Positions 30,666 to 56,819 of a stretch of DNA of 64,000 nucleotides are shown in pieces. The position numbers and the translations under genes were made by a program. This stretch comes from Rhodovibrionaceae bacterium GXU_MW_A322 (GTDB lineage: Bacteria > Pseudomonadota > Alphaproteobacteria > Kiloniellales > DSM-21159), in assembly GCA_052078155.1 (NCBI GenBank), contig JBQJBP010000006.1, positions 34,581 to 98,580 of the forward strand. Reading direction: 5' to 3'. The notes under the pieces were generated by a model. That model was not told where the DNA came from, did not search any database, and was given only the letters and a program-made list of their open reading frames with translations. Position 1 is the stretch's first letter. Every line of letters begins with the position of its first letter.

Positions 30666-30807
30666 CTCAGAGCATGATCGTTTTAGTCAGAAGCACTTTG
30701 CGCTTGTGCCTAAACCGTGAATCACCCTCTAACAGATTGAAAAGAGGCTTATTCACGTCTTGTTTGAAAACACCTCGTGATTCCAAATGAGACGATAAGG
30801 CTCTAAG
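30666..30807 (+). repeat. full-length modular MITE-like element (modules A-B-C')
   Basis: ctcagagcatgatcgttttagtcagaagcactttgcgcttgtgcctaaaccgtgaatcaccctctaacagattgaaaagaggcttattcacgtcttgtttgaaaacacctcgtgattccaaatgagacgataaggctctaag; its terminus supplies the stop of the gene ending at 30803. Confidence 0.85.
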
Positions 30808-31582
30808 GCAGAAATCCTTCACCGATTTGCGCTGCATCAATGGCGGTTTGCAGGTTGTTGATCTGCTCTGTCAGGGTGCGCAGACGGTTTTGCTCCCGTG
30901 GCAGTTCCACGCGACAGTCGCGTTTGTATTCCAGTTGTGCATGTTCGCGAACCTTGACCGCGCACTGTCTGAAATCGACAGAAAAGAGGCCTCTGCATTC
31001 GTCATAAACGTTGTGGGTGTCGTCATATCTGCTGGTACAGCCCTGGCAGGTGCCACATTGCTGTTGCCGGGTCAGCACCCACTTTCCAAGCATTCTCTGT
31101 TCTGCCGTCAGTTCCTCCAGCAGAGTGACCTGCTCTTCCAGCATCTGGGCCTTGGTTTCAGCCTTTTCAGCTGCCAGGGCCTCTTTTTCTTCTGCCTGCT
31201 GTTCAGCATCTCTTTGAACCAGCTGCTCTTCCCGGGACCAGACCACCAGATCAATGGCCTCTTCATAGTGCTCCCCGGTTCGACCCGTCTTGACCAGGTA
31301 ATCCAGCAGGACCTGCTCTGCTTCTGCAAATTCACCGCTCTCAAACAGCAGCTTGCCTTCGTAGAAAGTGATTGAAAAATCAACCGGCAGGTTGAGCGCA
31401 CGCATCTGCTTCAGCGCTTCGATGGCTTCTTCGTGCTGGTCTCTTTCCAGAAAGACTTCGACCTGGCGGGACAAGAGATCAAACTTCACTTCTGGCGGCA
31501 GCCCCTGAGCAGATGCCTGCTGAAAGGCTGGGCTGAAGATCAATGCCGCTAAGATCAGGCAGCCGGAAAGAAACTTGATCAT
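30803..31582 (-). CDS. secreted hypothetical protein with helical/coiled-coil region and Cys-rich C-terminal segment
   Basis: Signal peptide MIKFLSGCLILAALIFSPAFQQASA; TPR-like or coiled-coil middle (EAIEALKQMRALNL..., EEKEALAAEKAETKAQMLEEQVTLLEEL); C-terminal CGTCQGCTSRYDDTHNVYDECRG...C...C. Bracketed by two MITE copies. Confidence 0.6.
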   Translation of the reverse strand: MIKFLSGCLILAALIFSPAFQQASAQGLPPEVKFDLLSRQVEVFLERDQHEEAIEALKQMRALNLPVDFSITFYEGKLLFESGEFAEAEQVLLDYLVKTGRTGEHYEEAIDLVVWSREEQLVQRDAEQQAEEKEALAAEKAETKAQMLEEQVTLLEELTAEQRMLGKWVLTRQQQCGTCQGCTSRYDDTHNVYDECRGLFSVDFRQCAVKVREHAQLEYKRDCRVELPREQNRLRTLTEQINNLQTAIDAAQIGEGFLP

Positions 31583-31649
31583 CAAAGTGGGTCCTAACGC
31601 GGAAAAACAAAAATCACAGCTACCCGGGCGTTCATTCAAAGGGACATTC

Positions 31650-31775
31650 ATTAGAGCATGATCGCTCGCCTAGGAAGCCCTTTATGCTCTAACGTAAACC
31701 GTAAATCATCCTCTAACCTGTTGAAAAGAGGATAATTCATGCTTCGTGTTCGCTCACCTGGCGGTGTCCCTTAGA
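31650..31775 (+). repeat. truncated MITE-like element (modules A-B and partial C)
   Basis: ttagagcatgatcgctcgcc...aaaccgtaaatcatcctctaacctgttgaaaagaggataattcatgcttcgtgttcgctcacctgg. Confidence 0.75.
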
Positions 31776-31920: not shown

Positions 31921-34900
31921 TTACTGCAACAGAGTTTCGATGATCTGGGCCAGATGTCTGGCGTTGTTGCCCTGCACCAAACTGCCGTGGTTGCCTGGAA
32001 CCCAGTGCAGATGCACAGCGCCCTGTGCCAGCTGGTCCCAATGCAAAAGAGCGGGCCCGTCAGCCTCTTCTTTCGCCCGCACCAGATGCAGATCCCCGGA
32101 CCAGTGGTCGGGATGAAAGGCTGCCAACGCGTTGCTGTTCTTCCGGGTCACCGAGAGCATGCGTTGCAGACCGGGCAGATCCAGAGTGGGCGGCAGGTTG
32201 GGGTGTCCCCTGGCGAGATCCAGCAGCAGGGTCAGGCGCGCTTCTTCTGTTGCTTTGTGCCAGCTCGCGGGATCCAGAGGCAGGTCGGTGGACAAGAGCG
32301 CACGGAACAACTCTGAATCTCGGTGGGGTGCCGGAGAAGGGCTCTCGCTTGCTGTGTCTTTTGTCTGGGCCATTGCATCGATGATGATCAGCGAACCAAC
32401 CTGTCCCCGTGAGGCTTTCAGCTTTTGCCCCAGCGCGTAAGCCAGGTGACCGCCAAAGGACCAGCCTGCCAGAGCGATACGGTCGGACGGGCTGCCCAGT
32501 ATGCCCTTGTCCTGAAGTTGCTGCAGGCAACGTTCTGCCAGCTCTTCCAGGCTTTCCTCAGGATCCGGGCTGCCGGACAGCAGGCCATTGGATTGCAGCG
32601 ACAAAACAGGGCGGGCCTGGCTGAAGTGCCGACTGACACCATAGGCCCAAAGACCATAGCCGGTAGCGGGGGGCAGACAGATCAAAGGGGCACCGTCACC
32701 GCCGCTGTTGACCGTCAGCCAGGGATCGTTGCTCGGAGGGCTTTCCTGGGGCAGTTGATCCAAGGCCCGTGCCAGGTGCCTTGCGCTGGGATGTTCAAAC
32801 ACCAGAGACAGCGGCACAGGGCGCTGCAGCCAGGTTTCGAGACGTTCGGCCAGTTGCACTGCCATGAGAGAGTGGCCGCCGCATTCAAAGAAGTTGCTGG
32901 CGGAGGACAGCGCAGAATTGCCAGCCTGCGGAGGCAGGATGCTCTGCCAGATGTCGAGCAGCGAGGGCAACAGGGAAGAGTCGCCGGTCTCTGCCTCAGA
33001 ACCTTTGGACTCCGGCCCAGGGGAAACGCTCATGCCGGGCAGAACTGTTGAAGCGCTTTCTGATGCCGCTTCTGATCCCTTGTTCAGGGTCTCTGCCAGA
33101 AACAGAGGCAGGTCCGGACTGCTGACGATTTGTTGCACCAGGCTCTCATAGGTCCGGGCCATCTGGTTCAGGGTTTCAGCCTCAAAGAGGTCACTGTTGT
33201 ATTCAAACCCGCCAGAAAGCTCTCGCTGGCCCTGTTCGTTCTCCCGTTCCTCCAGGAACAGACTGAGATCTACCTTGGCAATGGGTGGGGCCAGTTCCAG
33301 CCGGGAAACGTCAAGATTGGGCAGGTCCAGACGCTGGCTGTCCAGCTGAGGGGTATGGTTGTCCAGCGTGAACATGACCTGGAACAGGGGATTGGCAGAG
33401 AGATTGCGGGGCGGAGAGAGCCGTTCGACCACCTGATCGAAGGGCACTTCGTCATGCTCGAAAGCCGCTAAAGCCCGGGTGCGCACGTCCGACAGAAACT
33501 CTGTGAAGCTCTGCCCTGCCTTGGGAGTCAGCCGCAAGACAACCGTGTTGACAAAAAGACCTACAAGAGAGGTCAGTGCGGGATCCTTCCGGCCCGCGAC
33601 CACGGTGCCGATGGGCAAGTCGCTGCCACCGCCCAGGTGATTGAGCAAGGCTGCAAAAGAGGCCGTCATGGTCATAAAGAGGCTGCAGTCATTTTCCGCA
33701 GACAGAGCATTCAGGGCTGCCAGTTGAGGACCAGAGAAGGTGAGTGGATGGATGGCTCCCCGATAGCTGGGCTGGCGGGGACGCGCGTGGTCCAGGGGTA
33801 GAGGCAGAAGCGTTGGGCTACCTGCCAGCTCCCGTTCCCAGAAGTCCAGTTCCCGGTCAAACACCCCGGCTTTCCGGCGGTTTCTTTGCCAGTGAATGTA
33901 ATCCACGTAGCTGATTGCGGCGGGTGACCGGGCGCTTTCACGACCTGACAACAGGGCTTTGTAGGCCTGGCTGATTTCTTCCGCGATTTCCCCTGAAGAC
34001 CAGCCATCGGCCACCAGATGGTGCAGGGTAATGATCAGTGCCCAACTGCTGTCTGACAGCTGAAACAGCTGTGCCCTTATGGGCCAGTCTTTTGTCAGAT
34101 CAAAGGGCCGCAATGCCGCTTTAGCCAGGTGTTTTTGCTGCAGAGGGCGAGGAACCTCTCTGAGGTCTCTTTCTGTCAGAAGACCGCTGACGGCGGGGCC
34201 AGAGCCATCTGCTGGCCTGCCCGAAGTCGTGTTGTCTTCCAGGGCATCTGTAACAAGGTAGGGATTGCCTTTTTGGCTTAGGAACCGGCTGCGCAGTTGC
34301 GGTTGATTGCGCACCAGATGATCAAGAGCCTTGCTCAGCGCTTCCCGATCCAGCTGGCCTGTCAGTTTCAGGGCCAGCGGTATGAGGTAGGCCTGCGCTG
34401 CATCTTCGCCCCCCAGTCGATCAAGAAACCACAGCCGTTCCTGCTGGAAGGAAAGGGGGGCAGGGCTTTGCTGTGCGACCGGTGTCAGGGCTGGGGAGGC
34501 AGGTTCCTGAACCCCACTGTCGCCGTTGTTGTCTGCCGCCAGACTTTCAGCCAGATCGCAGATCCGTGGCGTTTCAAAGAGCCGCCGGGGGGCAATCTCC
34601 CGTCCCAGATGGTCGCTGAGCCTGGCGGCCATTTGCAAGGCCAGAAGGGAGTGGCCGCCCAGTTCAAAGAAATGCGCCGTGCGGGTCAGCTGTTTCTGTT
34701 CCAGCAGTGTTTCGTAGAGCTCTGCCAGGACCTGTTCCAGTGGGTTCTGGGGTGCTTGACCGACAGATGCTGTGTCTTGTTGGGTTGGCGACGGCAGAGC
34801 CTTCCTGTCGATTTTGCCGGAGGGGGTTAAGGCAAAGGCGGGAAGGACAAGCAGGTGGCTGGGCTGCATGTAGTCTGGCAGCTGCTGTTTCAACTGCTGC

Positions 34901-37900
34901 TGCAGGTGTGGCACCAGGGCGTCACCGTCGTTGGTGCACCCGGACGTGGGCACCAGATAGGCAACCAGCTGTTCTTGCCGCAGCAGCACCAGTGCCTGCT
35001 CGATGTCTGGATGACTGGTCAGGCAGGCTTCGATTTCGCCCGGTTCAATCCTGAAGCCTCTGAGCTTAATCTGGTGATCCCGTCGACCCAGGAACTCGAT
35101 GGAGCCATCAGCCCGCCAACGGGCCTGGTCGCCCGTGCGGTAGAGACGGGCCCCCTTCACGTAGGGATCGCTGGGGAACGACTTTGCGCTCAGATCCGCA
35201 CGCTGATGGTATTCCCGCGCCAGACCTATGCCCCCCAGACAGAGCTCTCCAACCACGCCGACGGGAACCGGCTGCAAATTGTCGTCCAGCACGTAGCAGC
35301 GCCGTCCGGCAAGCGGTCTGCCAATGGAGGCACCAAAGGGGTGGCTGTGGCTGTTGTCGTCGGTGATTTCCCGGGCTGTGGCCGTGACAGTGGCTTCTGT
35401 CGGACCATAGGCATTGATCAGGCGCGGTCGGACGGCTGGTGCCAGCTGTTGCCAGTGGTCCAGATCCGTTGCCCGGATCGCTTCCCCGCCAAGTGAGATG
35501 AGTTTGCTGTCAGGGATCAGATGCGGCTGCTCCACCCAGCTGCTTACCAATCCGCGCCAGTAGGCCGTTGGCAGATCCAGCCAGGTGATCGAAAACTCGC
35601 GGCTCAGTCGCTTGAGTTCCCGGGCCGTCCAGGCCTGATCTTCCAGGAACACCAGCCCGGCTCCTGCCCGCAGGGGAAGCAGGATTTGATCCAGGGCCGT
35701 GTCAAACGCCAGAGAGGCCGTTTCCAGGGTGCGATCACCAGGCGCCAGGGCGATAACCTGTTCCAGCCCGGCCTGATGATCGGCCAGGGCACCCTGTTCA
35801 ATCGTCACCCCCTTGGGTTTGCCGGTCGATCCGGAGGTATAGAGCAGATAGGCCGCATTGTTTCGCCAGCCGTGCGGGGGCTCCTCGGGATCCGTTGGGA
35901 GCGGGGAGGTCTCGGCATCCGGCTCTGTCAGGGTCACGTCCAGGCAGGGGTAACCCTGGAAGAGCCCATCCTCACATGCCCCAGGCTCAGTCAGGTTCAG
36001 TTTCTCAGTCAGGATCAGTTTGGGGGCCGCATCTTCCAGGATCAAACGGCGGCGCTCCGCTGGCTGCTTGGGGTCCAGAGGCAGCAGGCAGGCTCCGGCC
36101 CGCCAGACCGCCAGGAGAGCGACGATGGCAAGAGGGCGACGGGGCAGGGCCAGAACCACTTTGTCTTCGCTTTCAACTCCGTGAGCTTTGATTTGCTTGG
36201 CGAGCTGTTCAACGGCTTGCCAGAGCCGGGCGTAAGACCAGCTTTCCTGCTCACTCAGCAACGCCAGTTCCTGGGGTTGATTTCGAGCGGCCCGGGCAAT
36301 GTCCAGAATAACCGGCCGGGGACTTGCGGGCAGGTCCGGCCCACTGGCCCAGTCCTCTGTCAGGCGCTGGTGTTGATCGGGGGACAGCAGGGGGAGGTCG
36401 GCAAGTGTCCGGTCCGGATTTTCCAGCACTTCGGCCAGCAGCTGACTGAAGAGTCTGCAAAAGCCTTCCACACTTTGCCGATCGAAGATCTGGCTGTTGT
36501 ATTCCATCATGCCCAGCAAGACTGCTGGTTCGTCTGGTGCTGTGACTTCACGCAGATGCAGGCTGAGGTCCATCTTGGCCGTCGGGCTCTCCAGATGCTC
36601 TTCCTGCAGGCTGAGGTCTGCTGTGAGCTGCCGGGGCCCGCTGTCTGCCTCATCCAGTGCAAACATCACCTGGAACAGAGGATTGTGCGACAGGCTGCGC
36701 TCGGGACGCAGTGCCTCAACCACCTGTTCGAATGGCACATCTCCCTGTCCGTAGGCCTCTAAGGCCGTGGTTTTGACCTGTTTCAGAAACTCTGAAAATG
36801 TCAGATGGCTTTGCGGCTGCAGGCGCAGGATCAGCGTATTGACAAAGAGCCCTACCAGTTCGTCCAGTTCGGAATGGTTTCGCCCGGCCAGGGCTGTACC
36901 CAGAGCCATGTCGTCCCCGCCGCCCAAGCGTTTCAGCAGCAGGGAAAAGGCCGCTGCCAGGGTCATAAACAGCGTCGTGCCTGCTTGCTTGCTGAGGGCT
37001 TTCAAGCCGACAAGCGTTTCTGTCTCAATGGTGAAAGGGCAGGCGCCCCCGTCGTAAGACTGAAGGGCGGCGCGTGGGCGATCCAACGGCAGGTCCAGCA
37101 GCTCTGGTAGGCCCGACAGCTTTTCTTTCCAATAAGTTAGCGAGGGCTCGAACAATCCTCGTGCCTGGGCCTGTCGCTGCCAGCGGGCATAGTCCAGATA
37201 GCTGACCGGGACAGCAGAGCTTCCGGGCTTTGACCCTGCTGAGGTCTGGGCGGGGGCCAGTGCGGCCTGATAGGCAGCAGGCAGGTTGTTGTGCAGCCAG
37301 CGCAGAGACCATCCATCGGCGGCCAGATGATGCAACGTAAGAAGCAGGGTCCAGTCCTGATCGCTGCGCTTCAGCAAGCAGGCTCTCAGGGGCCATTCCT
37401 GAGTCAGGTCGAATGGCTGAAAGGCCAGGCCCCTGATTGTGCGGGTCTCTTCATCCTCGCTCAATCCCGCAAGGGACAGCAGGGGGAGGGGCTGGTCCGC
37501 AGCCGGGTCAACTTTCTGGCAGATCTCGCCGTTGATCTGAACAATTAGGGTGCGCAGCACCGGTTGTCGCGCCACCAGCGCCGACAGAGCCGTTTGCAGA
37601 GCCGCAGCGTCTAGGGCGCCACGCAGACGGAGGCTAACCGGCATGAGATAGGCAAGTCTGGCTTTGTCACTGTCGGCCCTGTTTCTATCGTCCGGACCTT
37701 TTGGAGCCGGGGCGTCGCTGTCGCCGTTCATGTTGTCCAGGAACCAGAGGCGTTCCTGCTGGAACGTCAGCGGGCCTGTTGTTTTGTCAGGGTCCGCCTG
37801 GAGTACCGGTTTGTGCCGGGATGACGAGCCAAGTCCATCCAGCGCGATTTCCAGACCCCGGGCTGTGGGCGCTTCAAAGAGCAGGCGCAAGGGCACGTCC

Positions 37901-40900
37901 TGCTGAAGGGTTTTGGACAGGCGGGCAACCACCTGCGCCGCCAGCAGGGATTGGCCACCAAGGTCAAAGAAGGAGGCGTCGGGAGAAACAGCCGTTAGAC
38001 CCAGCACCTCTGCAAAGAGCGCACAAATGAGTTGCTGGCGACCGGAAGATGCAGGGGCGGCTGTGTCCTTATCCTCTGCTTGCTGCGGAATCTCAGCAGC
38101 AGGCAGGCGCTTTCGGTCGATCTTTCCGGCGGGGTTGAGGGGGAAGTCCTCCAGAAAGACCAAACTGTTGGGACGCATGTACTCCGGCAGGCGTCGGGCC
38201 AGGCGGTTTTTCAGATCCTGTCGCAACTGTGGCAAGCTGCCGCCTGCTGCGGCACTTGGGATCAGATAGGCGGCCAGACTGTCATCCTGTTTGACCACCA
38301 GAGCTTCTTTTACATCCGGGTGGGACAGCAGGTTTTCTTCGATTTCTCCCGGCTCAATGCGGAAGCCTCTCAGCTTGATCTGATGGTCTTTGCGCCCCAG
38401 GAAAGCCAGCTGGCCGTCTTGTTGCCAGGTTGCCAGATCTCCAGTGGCGTAGAGCCGAAGGTTTTGCTGGAAAGGCGCGGTGTCAAAAGCCGCTGCCGTC
38501 TTGTCGGGGGCATTGTGGTAGCCGCGCGCCAGCCCCGGTCCGGCAATGAAGAGTTCCCCGCTCACGCCTTCCGGCTGCGGGGCTTTTCTGTCGTCCAGAA
38601 CGAAGCAGGACCAGCCGGGCAGGGGGCGGCCAAGAGGCAATGGGGCATCTGTGCTCAGGTCCAGATTGGTGAAGTCGCAGTAACTGGACCAGATGGTGGC
38701 TTCCGTTGGTCCATAGAGATTGACGGCTTTGCTGCCCCAGGCTTGCAGCTGTCGGGCCAGATCCGGTTGCAGCGCTTCCCCACCGCAGTAGAGTGTCGGG
38801 CGGTGAGGGGCTGTCCATTCTGCGCTTTGCAGCAGTCGGTAGCTGCTGGGGGTGGCCTGCAGCAGGGTTGCAGCCTGATCATCCAGCAGGCGGGCCAGAG
38901 CCAGACCATCTTTGCTGATATCTTCTGGAACCAGCAGGAGGGCCGCCCCCTTGCGCAAGGGGGCAAAGAGCTCAAACAGCGAGATGTCAAATGTGACGAT
39001 GGTGATTGCAGCCAGCGTATCGTTCGGGGTCACCGCCCCCAGGGCCTGTTCCATGGCCTGATGGAAGGCGGTAAAAGAGGCCTGCTCGACCAGCACTCCC
39101 TTGGGTTTTCCGGTTGAACCGGAGGTGTAGAGCAGATAGGCAGCAGAACCGGCGTCTGGCCAGGGGGGCGCTGTTTGCCTCTGCGAAGCTGAGGGATCTG
39201 CTGTTTGCGCTAGCACCTCTGTCAGGGACAGCGTCAGGTGATTGTAACGCTGATGGAGCGGATCCTGCCCGGTGGTGTCGTCGCAAAGGATGAGCCGGGG
39301 CATGGCATCCTGCAGGATCAGGCGGCGACGCGCCTCCGGATGTCCCGGGTCCAGAGGAAGGAAGGCTGCTCCGCTGCGCCATACGGCCAGCATGGCAATC
39401 AGAACCAGTGGGCTGCGCGGCAGAGCCAGGGCGACGATATCTTCCGGCCCGATGCCCTGCCGTATCAGACTCTGGCTTAGTCGTTCTGCTGCGTTTTGCA
39501 GGTCCTGATAGCTGAGATTTTCGCCATGGGGCCACATGACGGCTGTTGCCGTTCCGGAAAGGTCAGCCTGGGCCCAGATCTCCTGCAGCACGCTTTGGCC
39601 ACTGGCCAGCAGAGGCGCCCCGACGGCAGTTTCTGTCAAGAGGCGCGCCTGCTCCGGCCCTGTCAGCAGGGAGTGGCTGTTGAGAGGTGCTTCAGGAGCC
39701 TGCAGAACCGAAGAAATCAGCTGCTTGAACTGGGAGATCAGCCGTTCGATCCCCTGGTGGCTGAAAAGGTCGCTGTTGTATTCAAAGGCGCCTGTCAGGA
39801 TCTTCTGACCGCTGTCGTTGCTGGCTTCTTCCAGATAGAGCGATAAATCCAGTTTGGCGCTCCTGCTTTTCAACAGGCGCTGGCTGCAGGACAGGCCAGG
39901 GAAGGTCAGGCTTTTTTCAAGGGCTCCCTGGCTGTGGCTGTCCAGAGTAAAGAGCACCTGGAAAAGCGGGGCATGGGCCAGACTGCGGTCCGGCTGCAGA
40001 GCTTCCACCACCTGTTCAAAGGGGCAGTCGGCATGCTGGTAGGCAGCCAGAGCGCTGTGGCGGGTTTGCTCCAGCAGATCCAGGAATGTCAGGTCATCGG
40101 TGGGACGCAGACGCAACACCAGAGAGTTCACAAAGAGGCCGATCAGCGGCTCCAGCGCCGTCATCCCGCGCCCGGCCGTCGGGGTACCCAGTGGAATGTC
40201 GTCGCCCGCCCCCAGACGTTGCAGCAGCAGGGAAAACAGCCCGGCCAGCGTCATGAAGAGCGTGCAGCCTCTTTGCCGTCCCAGCTGTTGCAGATCAACC
40301 AGTTCGTCAGGGCTGAAACTCAGGGTACAGAGCCCCCCTTCGTAGCTCTGGAGGGCTGGGCGGGCCTTGTCAAATGGCAGATTCAATGAGGCCGGCAGGT
40401 CGGCCAGCTGTTCAGTCCAGTAGGTCAGGTCCTTTTGAACCTGTTTGTCTGCCAGGGCATCCCGTTGCCAGCTGCAGTAATCCCGGTAGGTCAGCGAAAG
40501 AGCCGGAGCCGTTTCTGCCGTTTGCGTGACGATCCGCCTGTATTCGCGGCTCAGCCCCTCCGCCAGGACCCCAATAGACCAGCCATCGCAGGCAATGTGA
40601 TGCAGCAGGATAAGAAGGGACCAGTTTTCTTCAGACCGCTGGAACAAGGTCAGGCGAACCGGCCAGTCCTTTTGCAGGTCAAAGGGCTGGTGCGCGGCAG
40701 TTTCAATGACTTCTTCCTGATCCTGCTGGTTCAGATCAGACAGGTCTTTGTGGCTGAATGGCAGGTTACCAACCGGATCAACTACCTGCTGCGGTCCCTG
40801 ATCACTGTCCATGATCCGGCTGCGCAGAACCTCCTGCTGCTCAATCACCTGAGCCAGCGCCCCTTCAAGGGCGGCTTTGTCCAGAGGACCGGAGATGTCC

Positions 40901-43900
40901 AGAAGCAGAGGCACGAGATAGGCTTGCTGGATGCCCTTTCCGCCCAGCTGATCGAGGAACCAGAGACGCTCCTGTTGATGAGACAGCGGGAACAGACCAT
41001 CAGCAGAGGTGATCTGACTTGTTGTTGCTATGGGACGCGCAGTTCCGGACAGGGGGGTGCTTTGCCGGGTCGCCAGGACCAACGCCAGGCCCGCTGCAGT
41101 CGGGTTTTCGAAAATCAGCTGCAGGGGAAAATCTTCTCCCCAGAGTTCGCTCAGGCGATTGGCAGCCTGGGCCGCGAGCAGGGAATGTCCACCCAGGACG
41201 AAGAAATCGGCTTCGGGATCCAGCTTGTCCAGTCCCAGAACTTCCGCAAAAACGGCTGATACCAGTTCTTCTTCGCCGGAACGGGCTGCTCTGCCCGAGC
41301 CGCTGCTCACCCGTCTTTGCGGTGGCGGCAGGGCGTCTCGGTCGATCTTGCCGGACGGGGTAAGGGGAAAAGACTCCAGCAATGTGAAGTGGGCGGGCAC
41401 CATATAGGCTGGCAACACCTGTGCCGCTCGGGCTCTCAGCTCTTCGGTCAGGACCTGTTCTGAGGCCGCACTGTTTTCTGAAGTCACCAGATAGGCGAGC
41501 AGTGTCTGATCTTTGGCCAGAACGAGGGACTGTTCGATGGCCGGGTGGCTGTCCAGGCAGGCTTCGACTTCACCGGGTTCAATACGGAAACCGCGCAGTT
41601 TGATTTGCTGGTCCCGCCGTTCAATGAACTCCAGCACCCCATCATTGCGCCAGCGGGCCAGATCACCTGTTCTGTAGAGCCGCTCCCCGGGACGGAAGGG
41701 GTTCGGCTGAAAGGAGTCCCGGCTGCGTTCCGGCTGGTTGAGATATTCACGCGCAACGCCGACACCGCCCACACAGAGTTCCCCGATGACCCCTTCCGGC
41801 ATGGGGCTGAGATTGTCATCCAGAACATAGGTGTAGACATCCGGCATAGGCCGCCCAATGGGCAAAGTGGCGGCGGGGCGCTGTTCCGTGGTTGCGCCTG
41901 TTGTTGCCACTTCAAAGGTGGTGGCACAGACAGAAACTTCGGTGGGGCCATAGGCGTTTATGAAATGAAGGGCGGCCCCTTCCGGGCTGTCTTTCCAGCG
42001 TTGGGCAACCTGCGGCGGGCAGGGCTCTCCGGCTGATATGACCACCTTCAGGCTGCGATAGTCTTGCGGATCCATCAAAGCCAGGGCGCTGGGTGGCAGC
42101 GTGACGTGGGTAACGTCTTGCCGGGTGATCAGGGATTTCAGGGCGGCACCTGGCAACAGTTGTTCCGGTGCGGCCAGAACCAGTTGAGCCCCGGCGCCCA
42201 GTGTCACAAACACTTCCGATACAGCGGCATCAAAAGCCGGGGTGGCAAACTGCAACACCCGGGCATTGGCGGAGAGATGAAAGGCGGGAATCTGACCGGC
42301 GATCAGGTTCGCCAGTCCGGCCTGTTCAATCACCACACCTTTGGGCTGGCCGGTCGAGCCGGAGGTGAAGATGACATAAGCGGCCTGGGTTTCTTTGATG
42401 TCTGAAAGATCTTCCAGGCCCAGCGGGGGCAGGGCTTCAGCCTTTTGCTTTAGATCATCCAGCGTGAGAGCCCGCACCGTGTCGGGCAGGGGCAGGGCCT
42501 CTGCCTGATCCGACAGGTATCCGGCCAGTTCCCCCTGTTGAACAATGGTCAGGCGCCTTTGCCGGGGATGGCCGGGGTCCAGCGGGACAAAGGCTGCGCC
42601 TGTCATCAGCACCGCCAGTTGGGTGATCACCAGATCAAGTCCGCGCGGCAGCGCCACGGCGATCCTGTCTTCAGTCGCTAGGCCTTCCTGCTTGAGAGCT
42701 GCGGCCAGCTTTCCAGCACTTTTCGCCAGCTCACCATAGCTGACCAGATGATCTTCCCAGACCAGAGCCGGGGTTCCCGGTTTTTCTGCTGCCAGTTTCA
42801 GAATGCGCTGGGCGGCAAGCGGGGGGCGCTGGCTGTGGCTGCTTTCTCTTGGCCAGTGTTCCGTCAGCTGACGGTAGACCTGGGGCGGCAGCAGGGTGCG
42901 GCTCTGTCCCGAAACCTCCGGATTGGCAGCGATGTCCTTCAGCAGAAAGGTCAGATCGCGGGCGATGATCCGGATCTGATCTTCTTCGAAGATGTCCCGG
43001 CGATAGGCGAATTCCAGCGTGATGTCCTGCTCATCGTGATATTCCCGCACAAAGAGCGAAAGGGGGGTCTGCTGGTCCTGATTTGTTATGGCCACGGCCT
43101 CTGCCGGGGCTGAATCAAATGACAGGGGGTAATCCTGAAGTTCAAAAGACAGGGCGATGTCAAACAGCCGGTTGCGTCCCTGGGCCAGAGCCCCGCTTTG
43201 GCGAATGACCTCGGCCAGAGAAACGGGCAGATGGCGATAGCTTTGTTTTACTTCTCGCGCCACCTGGCCCATCAGGTCACTGGTGGGTTGAGCCAGGTCG
43301 AGCGACAGGGGCAGGGCGGCAACGGTGGTAAATAGCCCGACCGTTTCCTTTTCCTTCTTACCCGTTCGATTGCGCAGGGGCAGACCGACGACCAGGGCTT
43401 CAAGGTTCTGGGTTCTGACAAAATAGAGATAGAGGGCCGTCAGGAAAAAGTGCAGCGGGCTGGCGCTGTTCTGTCCGGCGACCTGGGTGATGCGGTCGAA
43501 ATCCTCGCGAGCCAGAGCCGTCTGCAAACTGGCTGACAGAGGCTTTTCAGCGGCTTTGACTGGCTGAAACAACGGAGGGGGCGGGTCCGAAAAGCGATCT
43601 TTCCAGTAGGCCTGTTTGGCGGACTGCCGGGCTGCCTGTCGGCTGTCCTCCACCGATTGCTTTTCGTCCTGGTCCAGCAGATAGCTGAAGAAGGAGGGGT
43701 GCGGGTCGGAGAGGGCGGGGGCATTGGGACTGCCGGATGCCGGGCCAAGGAAGCCCAGGGGGTTCTGGCTTTCCTGGCGTTGCCGGACACTCAGAGCCTG
43801 ATAGAGCTCACTCAGACGACGCAAGACGAGCCCGGTGCCCCAGCCGTCACAGATGAGGTGATGATAGACGTTGATCCAGCGGTAGTGCTGGTCGCTCAAT

Positions 43901-44301
43901 TTCAGAAGCTGGGAGCGGAACAGGGAACCCCCATCCAACTGGAAGGGGCGATCAAGCGCTTGCTGACAGAGTTGATCGGCTCTTCTGTCCGGCCTGTCTT
44001 CGCTGCTGATGTCTGTAAAGCTGAAGGCTGGTGCCTTGTCTTTTGTATCAGACAGCCGCCAGCGCGGGACAGGGCCGTCCTTTTCCAGGCGCAGACGCAG
44101 GGCGTCATTTTCCTCAATCAGCAGAGAAAGCGCCTGGGAAAAGCGGGCACGGTTCAGCGGCCCTTTGATCTCCAGATAGCCACCAATGTTGTAACTGGCG
44201 GTTTCAGCCAGCCTTTGCTGGTCAAACCAGATGTCTCTTTGAGCCGCAGACAGGATAGGCGAAGGCTGAGGCCTGTTGGCACTGTTCCTTTCCTTTCCCA
44301 T
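31921..44301 (-). CDS. non-ribosomal peptide synthetase, 4 modules: Cstarter-A1-T1-C2-A2-T2-C3-A3-T3-C4-T4-TE (last module lacks an A domain)
   Basis: - Four C domains with HHxxxDG (HHLICDGWG ~43.85 kb, HHIACDGWS ~40.58 kb, HHLAADGWS ~37.3 kb, HHLVADGWS ~34.0 kb).
- Three A domains (SGSTGxPKG cores at ~42.35, ~39.1, ~35.8 kb).
- Four T domains (FFVLGGHS ~41.2 kb, FFDLGGQS ~37.96 kb, FFELGGHS ~34.65 kb, FFECGGHS ~32.88 kb).
- C-terminal thioesterase (GWSFGGHLA).
- Single 4126-aa frame. Confidence 0.95.
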   Translation of the reverse strand: MGKERNSANRPQPSPILSAAQRDIWFDQQRLAETASYNIGGYLEIKGPLNRARFSQALSLLIEENDALRLRLEKDGPVPRWRLSDTKDKAPAFSFTDISSEDRPDRRADQLCQQALDRPFQLDGGSLFRSQLLKLSDQHYRWINVYHHLICDGWGTGLVLRRLSELYQALSVRQRQESQNPLGFLGPASGSPNAPALSDPHPSFFSYLLDQDEKQSVEDSRQAARQSAKQAYWKDRFSDPPPPLFQPVKAAEKPLSASLQTALAREDFDRITQVAGQNSASPLHFFLTALYLYFVRTQNLEALVVGLPLRNRTGKKEKETVGLFTTVAALPLSLDLAQPTSDLMGQVAREVKQSYRHLPVSLAEVIRQSGALAQGRNRLFDIALSFELQDYPLSFDSAPAEAVAITNQDQQTPLSLFVREYHDEQDITLEFAYRRDIFEEDQIRIIARDLTFLLKDIAANPEVSGQSRTLLPPQVYRQLTEHWPRESSHSQRPPLAAQRILKLAAEKPGTPALVWEDHLVSYGELAKSAGKLAAALKQEGLATEDRIAVALPRGLDLVITQLAVLMTGAAFVPLDPGHPRQRRLTIVQQGELAGYLSDQAEALPLPDTVRALTLDDLKQKAEALPPLGLEDLSDIKETQAAYVIFTSGSTGQPKGVVIEQAGLANLIAGQIPAFHLSANARVLQFATPAFDAAVSEVFVTLGAGAQLVLAAPEQLLPGAALKSLITRQDVTHVTLPPSALALMDPQDYRSLKVVISAGEPCPPQVAQRWKDSPEGAALHFINAYGPTEVSVCATTFEVATTGATTEQRPAATLPIGRPMPDVYTYVLDDNLSPMPEGVIGELCVGGVGVAREYLNQPERSRDSFQPNPFRPGERLYRTGDLARWRNDGVLEFIERRDQQIKLRGFRIEPGEVEACLDSHPAIEQSLVLAKDQTLLAYLVTSENSAASEQVLTEELRARAAQVLPAYMVPAHFTLLESFPLTPSGKIDRDALPPPQRRVSSGSGRAARSGEEELVSAVFAEVLGLDKLDPEADFFVLGGHSLLAAQAANRLSELWGEDFPLQLIFENPTAAGLALVLATRQSTPLSGTARPIATTSQITSADGLFPLSHQQERLWFLDQLGGKGIQQAYLVPLLLDISGPLDKAALEGALAQVIEQQEVLRSRIMDSDQGPQQVVDPVGNLPFSHKDLSDLNQQDQEEVIETAAHQPFDLQKDWPVRLTLFQRSEENWSLLILLHHIACDGWSIGVLAEGLSREYRRIVTQTAETAPALSLTYRDYCSWQRDALADKQVQKDLTYWTEQLADLPASLNLPFDKARPALQSYEGGLCTLSFSPDELVDLQQLGRQRGCTLFMTLAGLFSLLLQRLGAGDDIPLGTPTAGRGMTALEPLIGLFVNSLVLRLRPTDDLTFLDLLEQTRHSALAAYQHADCPFEQVVEALQPDRSLAHAPLFQVLFTLDSHSQGALEKSLTFPGLSCSQRLLKSRSAKLDLSLYLEEASNDSGQKILTGAFEYNSDLFSHQGIERLISQFKQLISSVLQAPEAPLNSHSLLTGPEQARLLTETAVGAPLLASGQSVLQEIWAQADLSGTATAVMWPHGENLSYQDLQNAAERLSQSLIRQGIGPEDIVALALPRSPLVLIAMLAVWRSGAAFLPLDPGHPEARRRLILQDAMPRLILCDDTTGQDPLHQRYNHLTLSLTEVLAQTADPSASQRQTAPPWPDAGSAAYLLYTSGSTGKPKGVLVEQASFTAFHQAMEQALGAVTPNDTLAAITIVTFDISLFELFAPLRKGAALLLVPEDISKDGLALARLLDDQAATLLQATPSSYRLLQSAEWTAPHRPTLYCGGEALQPDLARQLQAWGSKAVNLYGPTEATIWSSYCDFTNLDLSTDAPLPLGRPLPGWSCFVLDDRKAPQPEGVSGELFIAGPGLARGYHNAPDKTAAAFDTAPFQQNLRLYATGDLATWQQDGQLAFLGRKDHQIKLRGFRIEPGEIEENLLSHPDVKEALVVKQDDSLAAYLIPSAAAGGSLPQLRQDLKNRLARRLPEYMRPNSLVFLEDFPLNPAGKIDRKRLPAAEIPQQAEDKDTAAPASSGRQQLICALFAEVLGLTAVSPDASFFDLGGQSLLAAQVVARLSKTLQQDVPLRLLFEAPTARGLEIALDGLGSSSRHKPVLQADPDKTTGPLTFQQERLWFLDNMNGDSDAPAPKGPDDRNRADSDKARLAYLMPVSLRLRGALDAAALQTALSALVARQPVLRTLIVQINGEICQKVDPAADQPLPLLSLAGLSEDEETRTIRGLAFQPFDLTQEWPLRACLLKRSDQDWTLLLTLHHLAADGWSLRWLHNNLPAAYQAALAPAQTSAGSKPGSSAVPVSYLDYARWQRQAQARGLFEPSLTYWKEKLSGLPELLDLPLDRPRAALQSYDGGACPFTIETETLVGLKALSKQAGTTLFMTLAAAFSLLLKRLGGGDDMALGTALAGRNHSELDELVGLFVNTLILRLQPQSHLTFSEFLKQVKTTALEAYGQGDVPFEQVVEALRPERSLSHNPLFQVMFALDEADSGPRQLTADLSLQEEHLESPTAKMDLSLHLREVTAPDEPAVLLGMMEYNSQIFDRQSVEGFCRLFSQLLAEVLENPDRTLADLPLLSPDQHQRLTEDWASGPDLPASPRPVILDIARAARNQPQELALLSEQESWSYARLWQAVEQLAKQIKAHGVESEDKVVLALPRRPLAIVALLAVWRAGACLLPLDPKQPAERRRLILEDAAPKLILTEKLNLTEPGACEDGLFQGYPCLDVTLTEPDAETSPLPTDPEEPPHGWRNNAAYLLYTSGSTGKPKGVTIEQGALADHQAGLEQVIALAPGDRTLETASLAFDTALDQILLPLRAGAGLVFLEDQAWTARELKRLSREFSITWLDLPTAYWRGLVSSWVEQPHLIPDSKLISLGGEAIRATDLDHWQQLAPAVRPRLINAYGPTEATVTATAREITDDNSHSHPFGASIGRPLAGRRCYVLDDNLQPVPVGVVGELCLGGIGLAREYHQRADLSAKSFPSDPYVKGARLYRTGDQARWRADGSIEFLGRRDHQIKLRGFRIEPGEIEACLTSHPDIEQALVLLRQEQLVAYLVPTSGCTNDGDALVPHLQQQLKQQLPDYMQPSHLLVLPAFALTPSGKIDRKALPSPTQQDTASVGQAPQNPLEQVLAELYETLLEQKQLTRTAHFFELGGHSLLALQMAARLSDHLGREIAPRRLFETPRICDLAESLAADNNGDSGVQEPASPALTPVAQQSPAPLSFQQERLWFLDRLGGEDAAQAYLIPLALKLTGQLDREALSKALDHLVRNQPQLRSRFLSQKGNPYLVTDALEDNTTSGRPADGSGPAVSGLLTERDLREVPRPLQQKHLAKAALRPFDLTKDWPIRAQLFQLSDSSWALIITLHHLVADGWSSGEIAEEISQAYKALLSGRESARSPAAISYVDYIHWQRNRRKAGVFDRELDFWERELAGSPTLLPLPLDHARPRQPSYRGAIHPLTFSGPQLAALNALSAENDCSLFMTMTASFAALLNHLGGGSDLPIGTVVAGRKDPALTSLVGLFVNTVVLRLTPKAGQSFTEFLSDVRTRALAAFEHDEVPFDQVVERLSPPRNLSANPLFQVMFTLDNHTPQLDSQRLDLPNLDVSRLELAPPIAKVDLSLFLEERENEQGQRELSGGFEYNSDLFEAETLNQMARTYESLVQQIVSSPDLPLFLAETLNKGSEAASESASTVLPGMSVSPGPESKGSEAETGDSSLLPSLLDIWQSILPPQAGNSALSSASNFFECGGHSLMAVQLAERLETWLQRPVPLSLVFEHPSARHLARALDQLPQESPPSNDPWLTVNSGGDGAPLICLPPATGYGLWAYGVSRHFSQARPVLSLQSNGLLSGSPDPEESLEELAERCLQQLQDKGILGSPSDRIALAGWSFGGHLAYALGQKLKASRGQVGSLIIIDAMAQTKDTASESPSPAPHRDSELFRALLSTDLPLDPASWHKATEEARLTLLLDLARGHPNLPPTLDLPGLQRMLSVTRKNSNALAAFHPDHWSGDLHLVRAKEEADGPALLHWDQLAQGAVHLHWVPGNHGSLVQGNNARHLAQIIETLLQ

Positions 44302-44358: not shown

Positions 44359-45660
44359 CTATTGCGGGATGACCCCCTGGACTTGGCTGGGTCGGGAATC
44401 AGAGGAGACCGGTGGCTGCGGAGGAACATCTTCAGCTGTTGATGTACTTTCTGCTGGAGAAGCCCCTTCTGCAGGTGTGGCAGGCTGCGACGCTGCTGCC
44501 GCTGCTGCGGCCGCTTCTGTTCCCTTTGCCACCACTGGGTTACCAGTCAGAGGATCGATGATGTAAGTTATAGAAGAGTCATTATCGTTTTTTAATCTGG
44601 CGGGACCCCGGCCGGGCACAGCTGGCCCCACCACCTTGTTCATTTCCTCCGAAACTTTTTGCAGAGCGGTATTGACCGCATCAACAATGTCTTCCGGGTT
44701 CTGTGGTTTCACAGCCGCCTGTGATTTCTTGTCGACAGCGGTCTGGCTGGCGCTGCCTTCCACCGGTGCCGAGCTGTCCCAGTTGCCCAGGATCAGGGGC
44801 ATGCCCTGCTCACCGGCGCCGATCACGACCATCTTGGCGTTATTGGACTCAGCCAGCCGCAGGGTGGCGTCGATGCCTTTCCAGCGCAGGTAATTCTCGT
44901 TGATGCCGGAGGTAACCGTTTCCTGGAAGACCCGGATCCCCGCCGCCTCAATGGCCTTGCGGTGGCTTTCCATGCGTTCGCGCTCCAGGATGAACTTGTA
45001 CTGCTCTGCCCTTTGGCGCTGGACGTTCTTCTGCGCAATGGCCATGCGGACCGTTTCCGGCAAGGTGACCGAGCGGATCAGCGTGTCTTCCACAAAGATG
45101 TAGTTGGGCGTGTTGGAATCCTGGTCAGACACCAGTTCCATGTTGCGGTGGGCCGCATCAGCGATGGCCAGCTGCAGATCTTCACGCTTGCCGGAATAGA
45201 GGGCTTCCGGCGTGTAGCGGGAAATCTCATGGCGCACCCGCGCCCCGATTTCCGGGGCAATCAGCGAGGTGATGAAGTCCGGGCCGACGTTCTTGTGCAG
45301 GAAGCCGATGGTTTCGGGATTGAGGCGATAGCGGGTTGAGACTTCGACCTGGACCAGCAGGCCATCCTGGGTCAGGGCATCCACGTTCACGACCATCTGC
45401 TGCAGCCGCATATCGTATACCTGGATTTTATCCCAGGGCAGGATGATCTTGGTGCCGGAATCGTAGTGCCAGGAGGTGATTGTGCCACCTAAGAACCGCA
45501 GCCACAGGGCCCCGGCATGACCGGCAGGCACAGTGATGAAGATGTAGGGGGCGAAAACCAACACCACGAAGACCACGATCAGGCTGGAAACTGACAGGCC
45601 CACATAGTTGCGTTTTACCCAGGCATTGAAGCCACGTTCGATCTTAGAGGACATGCGCAT
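44359..45660 (-). CDS. SPFH/band-7 (prohibitin/flotillin-like) membrane protein with Ala/Pro-rich C-terminal tail
   Basis: N-terminal TM (LIVVFVVLVFAPYIFI), SPFH domain (VNVDALTQDGLLVQVEVSTRYRL...), low-complexity tail (EAAAAAAAASQPATPAEG...PPQPP). Its start overlaps the last 17 nt of the upstream exporter gene. Confidence 0.8.
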   Translation of the reverse strand: MRMSSKIERGFNAWVKRNYVGLSVSSLIVVFVVLVFAPYIFITVPAGHAGALWLRFLGGTITSWHYDSGTKIILPWDKIQVYDMRLQQMVVNVDALTQDGLLVQVEVSTRYRLNPETIGFLHKNVGPDFITSLIAPEIGARVRHEISRYTPEALYSGKREDLQLAIADAAHRNMELVSDQDSNTPNYIFVEDTLIRSVTLPETVRMAIAQKNVQRQRAEQYKFILERERMESHRKAIEAAGIRVFQETVTSGINENYLRWKGIDATLRLAESNNAKMVVIGAGEQGMPLILGNWDSSAPVEGSASQTAVDKKSQAAVKPQNPEDIVDAVNTALQKVSEEMNKVVGPAVPGRGPARLKNDNDSSITYIIDPLTGNPVVAKGTEAAAAAAAASQPATPAEGASPAESTSTAEDVPPQPPVSSDSRPSQVQGVIPQ

Positions 45661-47278
45661 CTCCTCTCATTCTGGCTATGCGCCCTTCTTCCATCACGAT
45701 GCGCCCGTCACAATCATCAAAGTAGCGGTCGTCGTGGGTGACCGCGAGAATGGTTTTTCCTGAAGCTTTCAGGTCCGGCAGCATGACTTCATAGAATTTA
45801 CGCCGGAATTCCGGATCCTGATCGGCTGCCCATTCATCAAAGACGTAAATGGGGCGATCTTCAAGCAGTGCGATCACCATAGCCAGACGTTTCCGCTGTC
45901 CGCTGGACAGGGCTTTGGTGTCAAACTGGCCGTCGATCAGTTCCACCTTCTTTTCCAGTTCCATCAGTTTCAGCAATTCATCCAGCCGGTCCTGATCGAC
46001 TTCCCCCAGACCGTAAAGGCGCGGGAAAAGGTGAAAGTTGAAGAAGACGGTGGAGAAGAGACTTTGCAGCAGCTCCAGGTTCTTATGATCGATAAGCTTG
46101 TCGTCCACATAGATGGCCCCTTCTTTGGGGTGATAGAGGCCGGTGGCCATCATCAATAGCGTCGACTTGCCGGAGCCGTTGCCCCCGGAAATGAACAGGA
46201 TCTGGCCTTTGTGTACTTCGAAACTGCAGGGGCCGCAGCGGAAGCTCACGCCGTTTTCCCGGTCATGGTGTTCGTAGACGATGCCTTCAAAGCGGATGGT
46301 TTCAAAGTCCAGCAGTTCTTCGCCGGTGGCTTTGGGGGAGGTGGCGGCTTCCTTCAGCGTCTCTTCCATCCGAATCATCGACTCACAGGCGGCATTGGCC
46401 GTTGCCATGTTGGACATGACACCAACGACCGAGGTCACGGGCCCGATGATGAAGAGCACGATGGTGGTGGTTTTCAACAGCTCTTCGGAAAAGGTTTCGC
46501 CAAAAGCCGGCAGCAGAAAGACCAGTGCGGCAGCCAGCATGTAGAAGGTGGCCTGGGCCATGATGAAAAGCACAGACAGCTGCACGTCCACCTGGACCTT
46601 GTAGCGGGTCACCGTGTGGGAGACGATGTCGATGTAGGACGTCAGATCCCGGGAGCGCTTGTTGTGCAGCCGGTTTTCCTTAAAGCCGTCGATGGCGTCT
46701 GTCAGACCGTCGAACAGCTTGTTTTCTTCAACGATGGTTTTGTGGATGGTGGCGTTGGTTTCGCCCCATTTGCGCAGGTAGATGAAGATGGCCAGCGCCA
46801 TGATGGCAATGGCGAGATAGAAGGCCCAGAGCGACAGGATGGCCAGATAGATCATCGTAAAGAAGATCAGAATGGCCGATTGGACCGCCAGCACCATGGA
46901 ACCGGCCGTTTGGGAGATGACCTGGGGCTGACGGGTGATGTTGGTGAAAATGTTGGCTTTGCCGATGCGCTCAATGGAATCCAGATCGCACTGGCGGATG
47001 TAGTTGACCTGCCGGACCCGGTACTCGTGGATGATCCGTTCCACTTCCCCGGTGGTTGCCACGAAGATGTGCTTTTGGGTGATGGTGTAGATTGCCAGCA
47101 CCACCAGGAACATGGCCAGATACCAGAAATTGGATCCGTTGCCGTCGCTGACGTGGGCTGCCGCCGTGTTGACAACCCCCAGAATCAAGGCGTTGCTCAG
47201 TCCCGCAATCCCGGCGTAAAGGAGGATCTTACGCAGCGGAATGGACGAGTACTGCTGGAAATACCTCAGCAGAACCAT
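45644..47278 (-). CDS. ABC transporter, fused permease/ATPase, cyclic-peptide exporter type (SyrD/PvdE/YojI-like)
   Basis: 544 aa; 6-TM N-terminal half; Walker A (SGGNGSGKST), ABC signature (LSSGQRKRL), Walker B (IYVFDE); size and architecture of the SyrD-family cyclic peptide transporters. Confidence 0.85.
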   Translation of the reverse strand: MVLLRYFQQYSSIPLRKILLYAGIAGLSNALILGVVNTAAAHVSDGNGSNFWYLAMFLVVLAIYTITQKHIFVATTGEVERIIHEYRVRQVNYIRQCDLDSIERIGKANIFTNITRQPQVISQTAGSMVLAVQSAILIFFTMIYLAILSLWAFYLAIAIMALAIFIYLRKWGETNATIHKTIVEENKLFDGLTDAIDGFKENRLHNKRSRDLTSYIDIVSHTVTRYKVQVDVQLSVLFIMAQATFYMLAAALVFLLPAFGETFSEELLKTTTIVLFIIGPVTSVVGVMSNMATANAACESMIRMEETLKEAATSPKATGEELLDFETIRFEGIVYEHHDRENGVSFRCGPCSFEVHKGQILFISGGNGSGKSTLLMMATGLYHPKEGAIYVDDKLIDHKNLELLQSLFSTVFFNFHLFPRLYGLGEVDQDRLDELLKLMELEKKVELIDGQFDTKALSSGQRKRLAMVIALLEDRPIYVFDEWAADQDPEFRRKFYEVMLPDLKASGKTILAVTHDDRYFDDCDGRIVMEEGRIARMRGDAHVL

Positions 47279-51309: not shown

Positions 51310-51321
51310 TTTGCGTGCGTC

Positions 51322-52383
51322 TCAGTTTTTCAATAGATCTTTGATTTCAGCTTCTTCCGCCGCGTCGCACCAGCGGGCCAGAGCCAGAGAAAAGCGCTCA
51401 AAAGCGGGGCCACTGTCAAAACCCAGCTTGGCGCCGGAAATGACAGTGCGGGCCCAAAGAAAGGCAATGCCCTTGCGATAGTCCTGGGTCACAGTCTCCA
51501 GGCTGTAGTTGTCGACCCCGGCGGCAGTCAGGCTGTCGTGGTAGGCCGCCAGCAACCCGGTAAGGGCTTCTGGCCGGTGGTGGAGGAAGTTTCCGGCAGA
51601 GAGGTAAGCCAGGTCAAAGCCGCCACGACCTTTGATGACCGTCTGCCAGTCCAGCAGGGCCCAGCCGCCATCAGCAAAAAACAGCAGATTGTCCAGCCGC
51701 AGATCACCGTGCAGCACTGTGGCCGGTTCCTGGCTCAGATCTGATCTCAGCTTTGTCAGGGCTGTTCCGGCTGTCGGGGCCAGGTGGTGCAACCAGTCGG
51801 GCAGCTGTTCGCCAAAGGTCTTTTCAAAGGCTGGCCAGCAAGCCTGATAGAAGGCTGCAATGTCCGGGCCCTGATCCAGTCGGGGCAGCCAGTCCGGCAG
51901 TGCTTTGCCATCAGGCCTTTGCCAGAAGTGGGCGTGGAACGCTGCAAGATCTTTGACGATAAAGCTGGCCTTCTTTGGTGCCATGCCGCGCAACTGGTCG
52001 CCGGGGCAGCCGTCCTTCAGGTCTTCCAGCAGCAGGATCGGGGCTGCGTCGTCTCCGCCGCTGGCCAGCAGTTGTGGAATGGTCAGTGGGGAACCATCGG
52101 CCAATTGCTCCAGAAAGAGCTTTTCGCGCTGATAGAAGCCCATCTGGCTCATCATCTGCCGGATTTGAGGGTCCTGTGACGGCAGCTTAACCACCAGACT
52201 GTCGGTGGGGCCTGATGTAAGCGACACCCGCGCCAGTTCGCCGGAAAAGCCGCTGTCTTCCCCCAGCGCTGTCACGGTGATGGGACCGGGAGGCTGGTTC
52301 AGAATCCCGGCAATCCACTCAGCTGTTATGTCGTTGCGCCCAAATGCCTTTTCGGCCGAAGCCTGCTCCCCCTGCTGTGTCAT
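51322..52383 (-). CDS. phosphotransferase-family kinase (APH / CHK / ecdysteroid-kinase-like)
   Basis: 353 aa; catalytic HGDLRLDN and DWQ motifs with an N-terminal nucleotide-binding lobe; start overlaps the stop of the upstream FAAL gene. Confidence 0.75.
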   Translation of the reverse strand: MTQQGEQASAEKAFGRNDITAEWIAGILNQPPGPITVTALGEDSGFSGELARVSLTSGPTDSLVVKLPSQDPQIRQMMSQMGFYQREKLFLEQLADGSPLTIPQLLASGGDDAAPILLLEDLKDGCPGDQLRGMAPKKASFIVKDLAAFHAHFWQRPDGKALPDWLPRLDQGPDIAAFYQACWPAFEKTFGEQLPDWLHHLAPTAGTALTKLRSDLSQEPATVLHGDLRLDNLLFFADGGWALLDWQTVIKGRGGFDLAYLSAGNFLHHRPEALTGLLAAYHDSLTAAGVDNYSLETVTQDYRKGIAFLWARTVISGAKLGFDSGPAFERFSLALARWCDAAEEAEIKDLLKN

Positions 52384-56528: not shown

Positions 56529-56819
56529 CTCTTGTCATGTCTGGCAGAGGTGTTTTTTCGCTGCGGAATGGGACCCGGTGGACTGTCACCGATTTGTCTC
56601 ATTTCGCTCAGGCCAAGTGCAGTTTTTTGACATCTTTGTGCATTTTTGCACCGAAAGCCAGAGGAAAGCCTGGGCTCAGATTAGCCCGTTTTGGGGGGTA
56701 ACTACATTAAAAGTCAGCCATCTTTTCAATTTGTTGGGTGAAGAATCTGACATGACGCTTATACTACTGTCAGATGATCCGTTGAGGCCGACCTGGCCCG
56801 ACGCAGACATCTTCTGGCG

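Follow-up and report, generated by a model that had tools for sequence, protein, structure and literature searches.

The nonribosomal peptide synthetase (NRPS) encoded on a 64,000-nucleotide stretch of contig JBQJBP010000006.1 from Rhodovibrionaceae bacterium GXU_MW_A322, hereafter the window, ends in a module that has no adenylation (A) domain. This fourth module consists only of a condensation domain (C4), a carrier domain (T4), and a thioesterase (TE). The protein belongs to a known class, the nonlinear NRPSs with an A-less (C-T) module. As module 4 has no A domain, T4 would have to be charged from outside the module, and the comparisons described below suggest that the donor is an A domain within this assembly line, most likely the directly upstream A3, a tentative reading to which we give a probability of roughly 0.45. 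The NRPS and the domains that bear on this question are as follows, with nucleotide positions counted from the start of the window.

31921..44301, minus strand: NRPS gene, 4126 amino acids, C(starter-like)-A1-T1-C2-A2-T2-C3-A3-T3-C4-T4-TE (open reading frame (ORF) list, translation, Pfam, motif map, and our own hidden Markov models (HMMs))
42892..44259, minus strand: C1, starter-like condensation domain with the motif HHLICDG (26-29% identity to C2-C4; PDB matches)
34753..36276, minus strand: A3 adenylation domain, residues 2676-3183 (A-domain HMM match)
34537..34734, minus strand: T3 carrier domain, FFELGGHS, Ser3218 (motif; four PP-binding matches in the whole protein)
33085..34470, minus strand: C4 condensation domain, residues 3278-3739 (Pfam Condensation, E = 7.6e-83, profile positions 2-447 of 456)
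32962..33084, minus strand: C4-T4 linker, about 41 residues rich in S, E, A, G, and P (no Pfam match)
32761..32961, minus strand: T4 carrier domain, residues 3781-3847 (Pfam PP-binding, E = 5.8e-12; motif map)
31933..32688, minus strand: C-terminal type I thioesterase, residues 3872-4123 (Pfam Thioesterase, E = 4.8e-17)

Module 4 has no adenylation domain

A search of the whole 4126-residue protein against Pfam returned three AMP-binding, four PP-binding, and one Thioesterase match in addition to Condensation matches, and the domain string C-A-T-C-A-T-C-A-T-C-T-TE was also returned by independent HMMs. An initial annotation, made from the letters of the sequence before any database search, had proposed this domain map, protein length, set of motif strings, and C-T-TE ending, and had suggested the HMM scan that has now borne them out. 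The last 896 residues (3231-4126) matched Condensation (3278-3739), PP-binding (3781-3847), and Thioesterase (3872-4123) in Pfam, without a match in between. The gap between C4 and T4 is about 41-43 residues, as compared to the roughly 500 needed for an A domain.

An A-domain HMM was built from A1-A3 and two A domains of a relative, the L001 NRPS described below, and was run without filters on all six-frame stop-to-stop peptides of the 64 kb. The matches were A1, A2, A3, and, at 95 bits, a fatty acyl-AMP ligase (FAAL), which is the only AMP-binding domain of the window besides A1-A3. No further A domain, cryptic or frameshifted, was found in this six-frame search of the window, all other whole-sequence E-values being above 7. 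Because there is neither space nor an HMM match between C4 and T4, no cryptic or frameshifted A domain lies there, and one hidden at that place or in another frame is excluded by Pfam and the six-frame search together. The absence of an A domain noted in the initial annotation thus holds, also for residues ~3240-3790, where a cryptic one had been considered.

Close relatives were sought in approximately 186,000 species-representative genomes as well as in a metagenome collection. The genome collection yielded a single close relative of the NRPS, with 57% identity, on a 9.5-kb contig (L001) from the metagenome-assembled genome of an uncultured member of the Rhodovibrionaceae. No close NRPS relative was found in the metagenome collection, where identities reached 41% at most, over a short fragment. 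The L001 NRPS is an incomplete fragment having two A, three C, and three T domains and one TE, and it ends in A-T-C-T-TE. Since L001 was assembled independently, the shared ending is not an assembly artefact, and module 4 is confirmed as a C-T-TE module without an A domain. The features of the A-less C-T class are all present, namely a C4 with intact HHxxxDG, a T4 with GGxS directly after it, and an architecture kept in a relative. Among the loci whose match reaches into the TE (about 15 retrieved), a span of approximately 2.7 kb was seen in L001 alone, the others having spans of approximately 3.7-4.0 kb that correspond to C-A-T-TE; among the nearest relatives, the A-less ending is therefore the exception.

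The domains that remain in module 4 retain their catalytic residues. The C4 motif HHLVADG comprises residues 3427-3433 (window 34003-34023), and the phosphopantetheine attachment site of T4 is Ser3811, found within FFECGGHS (window 32869-32892, with the Ser codon at 32869-32871). A T4 that had lost the conserved serine, which the initial annotation had named as the mark of a vestigial module, is thereby ruled out. The TE has a Ser-Asp-His triad made up of Ser3948 in GWSFG (3946-3950), the Asp of IIDA, and the His of PGNHGS, and it is the single TE of the protein, with its match ending at residue 4123 of 4126.

C4 is 43% identical to C2 and to C3, and in PDB it is nearer to the TycC PCP-C structure (2jgp, 1.2e-50) than to SrfA-C (2vsq, 1e-22) or TycB1 (9bfd_B, 3.6e-23). 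We take 2jgp to be an LCL domain and 2vsq and 9bfd_B to be DCL domains. These comparisons place C4 among the ordinary elongation C domains. The intact HHxxxDG, the identity to C2 and C3, and best PDB matches that are themselves ordinary elongation C domains rule out that it is degenerate, of the X type, or an epimerization domain. C1, with just 26-29% identity to C2-C4, has its best PDB matches in 7c1k, 7c1h, and 7c1p, presumably a lipoinitiation starter C domain.

Comparison of the window with L001 revealed identities of 61% for C4, 61% for T4, and 64% for the TE, values similar to those within the complete modules (C3, 56%; T3, 54%; T2, 61%; A domains, 66-70%). The C4-T4 linker is of unequal length in the two proteins and only 19.5% identical, whereas HHLVADG, GGHS, and the Ser, Asp, and His of the TE are invariant. 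A working module, unlike a relic, would be expected to keep its catalytic domains while its linker diverges, and the observed pattern argues that module 4 is functional.

Loading of the final carrier domain

The need for loading from outside module 4, already recognized in the initial annotation, follows from the domain map. In the mechanism we propose, an A domain that is not part of module 4 would aminoacylate Ser3811 of T4, C4 would link the residue thus bound to T4 with the acyl-tripeptidyl chain carried by T3, and the TE would release an acyl-tetrapeptide. The default donor would be A3, directly upstream in the order A3-T3-C4-T4, which would charge both T3 and T4 with no SyrB1/SyrC shuttle.

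Such in-line sharing, of the AmbB/AmbE, Ttm, and HMWP2 type, is favored because the operon is conserved in two lineages without a visible partner gene, because the order A3-T3-C4-T4 puts the orphan T right behind a complete module, and because A-less C-T modules elsewhere nearly always follow a complete module. The last point comes from a survey of the 150 best-scoring representative NRPSs obtained in a whole-library HMMER search with the NRPS tail, a set dominated by giant NRPSs. A-less C-T modules occur in 9 of these 150, nearly always directly after a complete module (A-T-C-T). In two of the 150, one A-less module follows another (A-T-C-T-C-T), a pattern consistent with repeated use of the A domain upstream. 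The giant NRPSs P0315 and P0285 with this A-T-C-T-C-T arrangement are reminiscent of fungal ferrichrome-type synthetases.

Several considerations weigh against this mechanism. The A-T-C-T pattern of other NRPSs is correlative only, and nothing in the present sequence singles out the A domain that charges T4. T4 is not specifically near T3, its identities being 34% to T3, 42% to T2, and 33% to T1, and the equal distance of C4 from C2 and C3 gives no sign of a shared acceptor specificity. A recent duplication of T3-C4 or C3-T3 was considered and found no support, the pairwise identities being flat. Finally, the cluster runs past the window on the polyketide synthase (PKS) side, and that part, or another place in the genome, could hold a stand-alone A or A-T gene.

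Direct charging by a neighboring A domain, which the initial annotation had mentioned as the alternative to syringomycin-type loading, has precedents at least as close as syringomycin itself. The closest in architecture is AmbE of the Pseudomonas aeruginosa AMB pathway, which ends A-T1-C-T2-TE and whose T2 is loaded by the A domain of AmbB (PMC4357302). AmbE thus shares a T-C-T-TE end in which the final T has no A domain in front of it, and this A-less T is charged directly, without a shuttle enzyme, by an A domain that loads the carrier of its own module as well (PMC4357302). It differs in that the A domain acting as donor resides on another protein, the product is a tripeptide precursor, and AmbE contains atypical C*/MT domains; in the present NRPS one polypeptide carries the three A domains, and the line starts with a lipid or polyketide.

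The thalassospiramide line is the closest ecological precedent. The Ttm line of Tistrella, placed by the preprint in the marine Rhodospirillaceae, has two A-less modules with no gene for a stand-alone A domain in the vicinity; it is functional when expressed heterologously, and its T5 is loaded by its own A3 (bioRxiv 10.1101/560987). Like the present system it is a hybrid NRPS-PKS lipopeptide line with A-less NRPS modules from a marine alphaproteobacterium; unlike it, Ttm is of the trans-AT type, its A-less modules are not terminal, and it has no close sequence relationship to the NRPS here. Module 2 of the pandorachelin synthetase of Pandoraea also lacks an A domain, and the neighboring A domain is proposed to load both carriers, giving a repeated residue (PMC13592322). 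That A-less module likewise stands directly after a complete module and is kept across strains (PMC13592322), but it is internal, has no TE after it, and serves a siderophore pathway. The MgpD protein of megapolipeptin biosynthesis (C-A-T-E-C-T-TE) offers another terminal A-less C-T-TE, in a hybrid PKS-NRPS of a proteobacterium; it differs in its last C domain, which follows an E domain and groups with DCL domains (PMC11411415).

Another uncharacterised kind of A-less terminal module is represented by C-C-T-TE proteins of soil metagenomes. P0035, and likewise P0029, lacks an A domain and is encoded directly after a PKS-aminotransferase megasynthase (L156, 8758-12645; L157, 10001-13888).

The initial annotation had leaned toward the syringomycin analogy, in which a dedicated A or A-T protein, encoded in this case outside the window, would activate a fourth and possibly modified amino acid and deliver it to T4 directly or via a SyrC/CmaE-type transferase. 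We consider this possible but doubtful. The part of the analogy that stands is the ending, as module 9 of SyrE is also a terminal C-T-TE without an A domain, fed by a dedicated A-T protein and shuttle enzyme, SyrB1/SyrC, in a cluster that has a cyclic-peptide-export ABC transporter and makes a lipopeptide (PMC8949500). Trans-complementation by stand-alone A-T modules is known as well in the ramoplanin and enduracidin systems, where it makes up for in-line A domains that are inactive (PMC8949500). Unseen cluster genes do exist in the present case, the PKS being cut by the window end. However, among every sizeable ORF of the 64 kb, and in the conserved operon of a second relative (L153, below), there is no SyrB1-like stand-alone A or A-T protein, and no dedicated A gene stands beside the complete modules up to the point where the cluster leaves the window at the PKS end. 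A SyrC/CmaE-like alpha/beta-hydrolase transferase is likewise absent from the window ORFs, in which the sole alpha/beta-hydrolase-fold matches are the NRPS TE itself (Ser in GWSFG), and from L153, and no PhyH/TauD-type match that would indicate a SyrB2-like Fe/2OG halogenase was found among the scanned window ORFs or in L153. To this extent the absence of partner genes reported in the initial annotation for the NRPS side of the window was upheld, and it tells against its preferred analogy, since in the syr cluster the partner genes adjoin syrE. SyrE has a tandem TE-TE at its C-terminus, as opposed to the single TE seen here, and nine modules as opposed to four; the present NRPS further differs in its hybrid FAAL/PKS context and alphaproteobacterial host. 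The exporter encoded in the cluster, called SyrD-type in the initial annotation, does belong to the SyrD-containing family TIGR01194, but that family accompanies many NRPS clusters, for example as PvdE, and so does not strengthen the analogy to syringomycin in particular. The P450 of the cluster, finally, best matches terpene-oxygenase models, below their cutoffs, and not a carrier-protein amino-acid hydroxylase.

Two further explanations dispense with an A domain for T4 or with T4 altogether. T4 might carry cargo that is not A-derived, such as an amine- or hydroxyl-bearing (poly)ketide from the divergent PKS or a CoA thioester, with C4 joining two separate chains. The cluster has two potential chain starters for such a scheme, FAAL-ACAD-ACP (the last two being acyl-CoA dehydrogenase and acyl carrier protein domains) plus a KS-first PKS on the one hand and the starter-like C1 on the other, and the A-less C-C-T-TE proteins that follow PKS-aminotransferase megasynthases in metagenome contigs lend it some further plausibility. 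It is nonetheless improbable, as the window encodes no visible transferase able to bring an acyl group to T4, C4 resembles the ordinary elongation domains C2 and C3, and a FAAL-ACAD-ACP-primed PKS handing its chain to C1 accounts for all parts more simply. The specific version in which T4 takes a PKS-built amine or hydroxyl unit, and C4 joins it to the lipo-tripeptide started by C1, seems more improbable still; if true, an A-less C-T-TE module would here be put to a new use, with a PKS-derived acceptor on T4. Hardly more credible is a relic that has lost its A domain by deletion, in which C4-T4 would be skipped or serve as a passive relay and the TE would release an acyl-tripeptide. Assembly of myxochromide S does skip a module. 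The Ttc thalassospiramide line likewise passes over its module 1b (bioRxiv 10.1101/560987), and conservation is judged here from two sequences only. Yet C4 and T4 match the active modules in conservation across approximately 40% sequence divergence, the carrier Ser and the catalytic His motif are kept while the interdomain linker has drifted freely, and the A-less architecture is held in both lineages.

The gene cluster and its relatives

Examination of the window revealed that the NRPS gene is preceded, in a minus-strand operon, by genes encoding, in order, the FAAL-ACAD-ACP protein, an APH/EcKL-type kinase, a 230-residue protein, a DUF697 protein, a 58-residue membrane peptide, the TIGR01194 exporter, and an SPFH protein. 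A P450 gene is found on the plus strand within the operon stretch. The features other than the NRPS are:

30803..31651, minus strand: signal-peptide TPR/Cys-rich protein, directly downstream of the NRPS gene (60% identity to the ORF downstream of the L001 NRPS; 100% identity to a Rhodovibrionaceae bacterium A322 hypothetical protein)
44359..45660, minus strand: SPFH/Band 7 protein, directly upstream of the NRPS gene (Pfam Band_7; 48% identity to the L153 homologue, in the same position)
45644..47278, minus strand: ABC exporter of the cyclic-peptide-export family, SyrD/PvdE type (NCBIfam TIGR01194)
50617-51309, minus strand: 230-residue ORF with an N-terminal transmembrane segment (no Pfam or NCBIfam match)
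52383..56528, minus strand: FAAL-acyl-CoA-dehydrogenase-ACP tridomain protein, first gene of the operon (Pfam; NCBIfam fatty-acid--AMP ligase models)
56778..63998, plus strand, divergent: cis-AT type I PKS, KS-AT-KR-ACP-KS-AT... (Pfam; frame open to the window end)

Searches of genome, metagenome, and read-assembly collections turned up only two relatives of the cluster, both partial. One is L001; the other, L153, is a 13.9-kb Logan contig having the same gene order from the start of the PKS gene to the start of the NRPS gene, with 40-72% identity. L153 is without the 230-residue ORF, and its P450 gene directly follows the kinase gene. The exporter scored 314.2 bits against TIGR01194, for which the cutoff is 286.2, over residues 20-535 of 544, and is 60% identical to its L153 homologue. 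The best NCBIfam matches of the P450 are albaflavenone monooxygenase and pentalenene oxygenase, both well below cutoffs. Folding of the RNA at the 3' end of the NRPS gene gave no terminator-like structure (z = 0.12), compatible with read-through to the downstream conserved gene, and this TPR/Cys-rich gene marks the edge of the cluster near 30.8 kb.

A set of genes at window 44359-48697 and 30803-31651 is kept with the NRPS in L153 and L001. It encodes the DUF697 protein, the 58-residue transmembrane peptide, the exporter, the SPFH/Band 7 protein, and the signal-peptide TPR protein with its Cys-rich C-terminus, and this membrane/secreted set may act in export or self-protection. The FAAL-ACAD-ACP, APH/EcKL-type kinase, P450, and KS-first cis-AT PKS genes (window 49222-56528 and 56778-63998) form a recurring cassette. 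On a Roseovarius aestuarii contig (L155) and an ENA contig (L154), the cassette occurs with no NRPS gene in the approximately 10-kb flanks fetched, and the flanks of L154 are without a P450 gene. Homologues of the FAAL-ACAD-ACP tridomain protein number more than 6000, and many come from cyanobacteria. The kinase weakly matches the class V lanthionine kinase LxmK (E = 6e-9), a hint that it might act by phosphorylation followed by elimination rather than in resistance.

The left ~30 kb of the window encodes CoA-ester and N-methylglutamate-type metabolism and is unrelated to the NRPS cluster. Between positions 1 and 21014 are genes for two family III CoA-transferases, an HpcH-like lyase, an enoyl-CoA hydratase, a thiolase-like protein with a ChsH2-type OB protein, an ACAD, and an SDR; after these CoA-ester genes, in the same interval, come GS-like, GXGXG, glutamate-synthase-like, and GATase genes resembling the N-methylglutamate pathway.

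Substrate codes and the predicted product

Stachelhaus positions were read against PheA as a ruler, and the control returned the correct code, DAWTIAAICK. The code of A1 is DASTIAAVCK, which we take to be a Tyr code, and that of A2 is DIFQYGLIWK, near what we take to be a Gly code, DILQLGLIWK. A3 has the code DTDDSGAVTK (DTDDSGAIT- in L001), with acidic residues at positions 239 and 278. A text search of the literature with the A3 code gave no useful match, and it fits no code known to us; because two pocket positions are acidic, the substrate of A3 is possibly basic. The A-domain codes are kept in L001 and L153.

The likeliest flow of the chain is from FAAL-ACAD-ACP to the PKS and from there to C1 of the NRPS, because the KS-first PKS and FAAL-ACAD-ACP recur elsewhere as a cassette without an NRPS. 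With sharing of A3 between T3 and T4, the predicted product would be acyl-Tyr-Gly-X-X, where X is the A3 substrate.

Mining based on colinearity would predict a lipo-tripeptide for this NRPS. An active module 4 would make the product a tetrapeptide whose last residue is unreadable from the gene, so that both product prediction and dereplication hinge on how T4 is loaded. The architecture reveals no new principle and would not surprise a specialist; the cluster is a rare orphan, and its host belongs to a marine family that has received little study. The NRPS, in which a single chain combines three A domains with one orphan T, is a compact test system for the rules by which A domains are shared.

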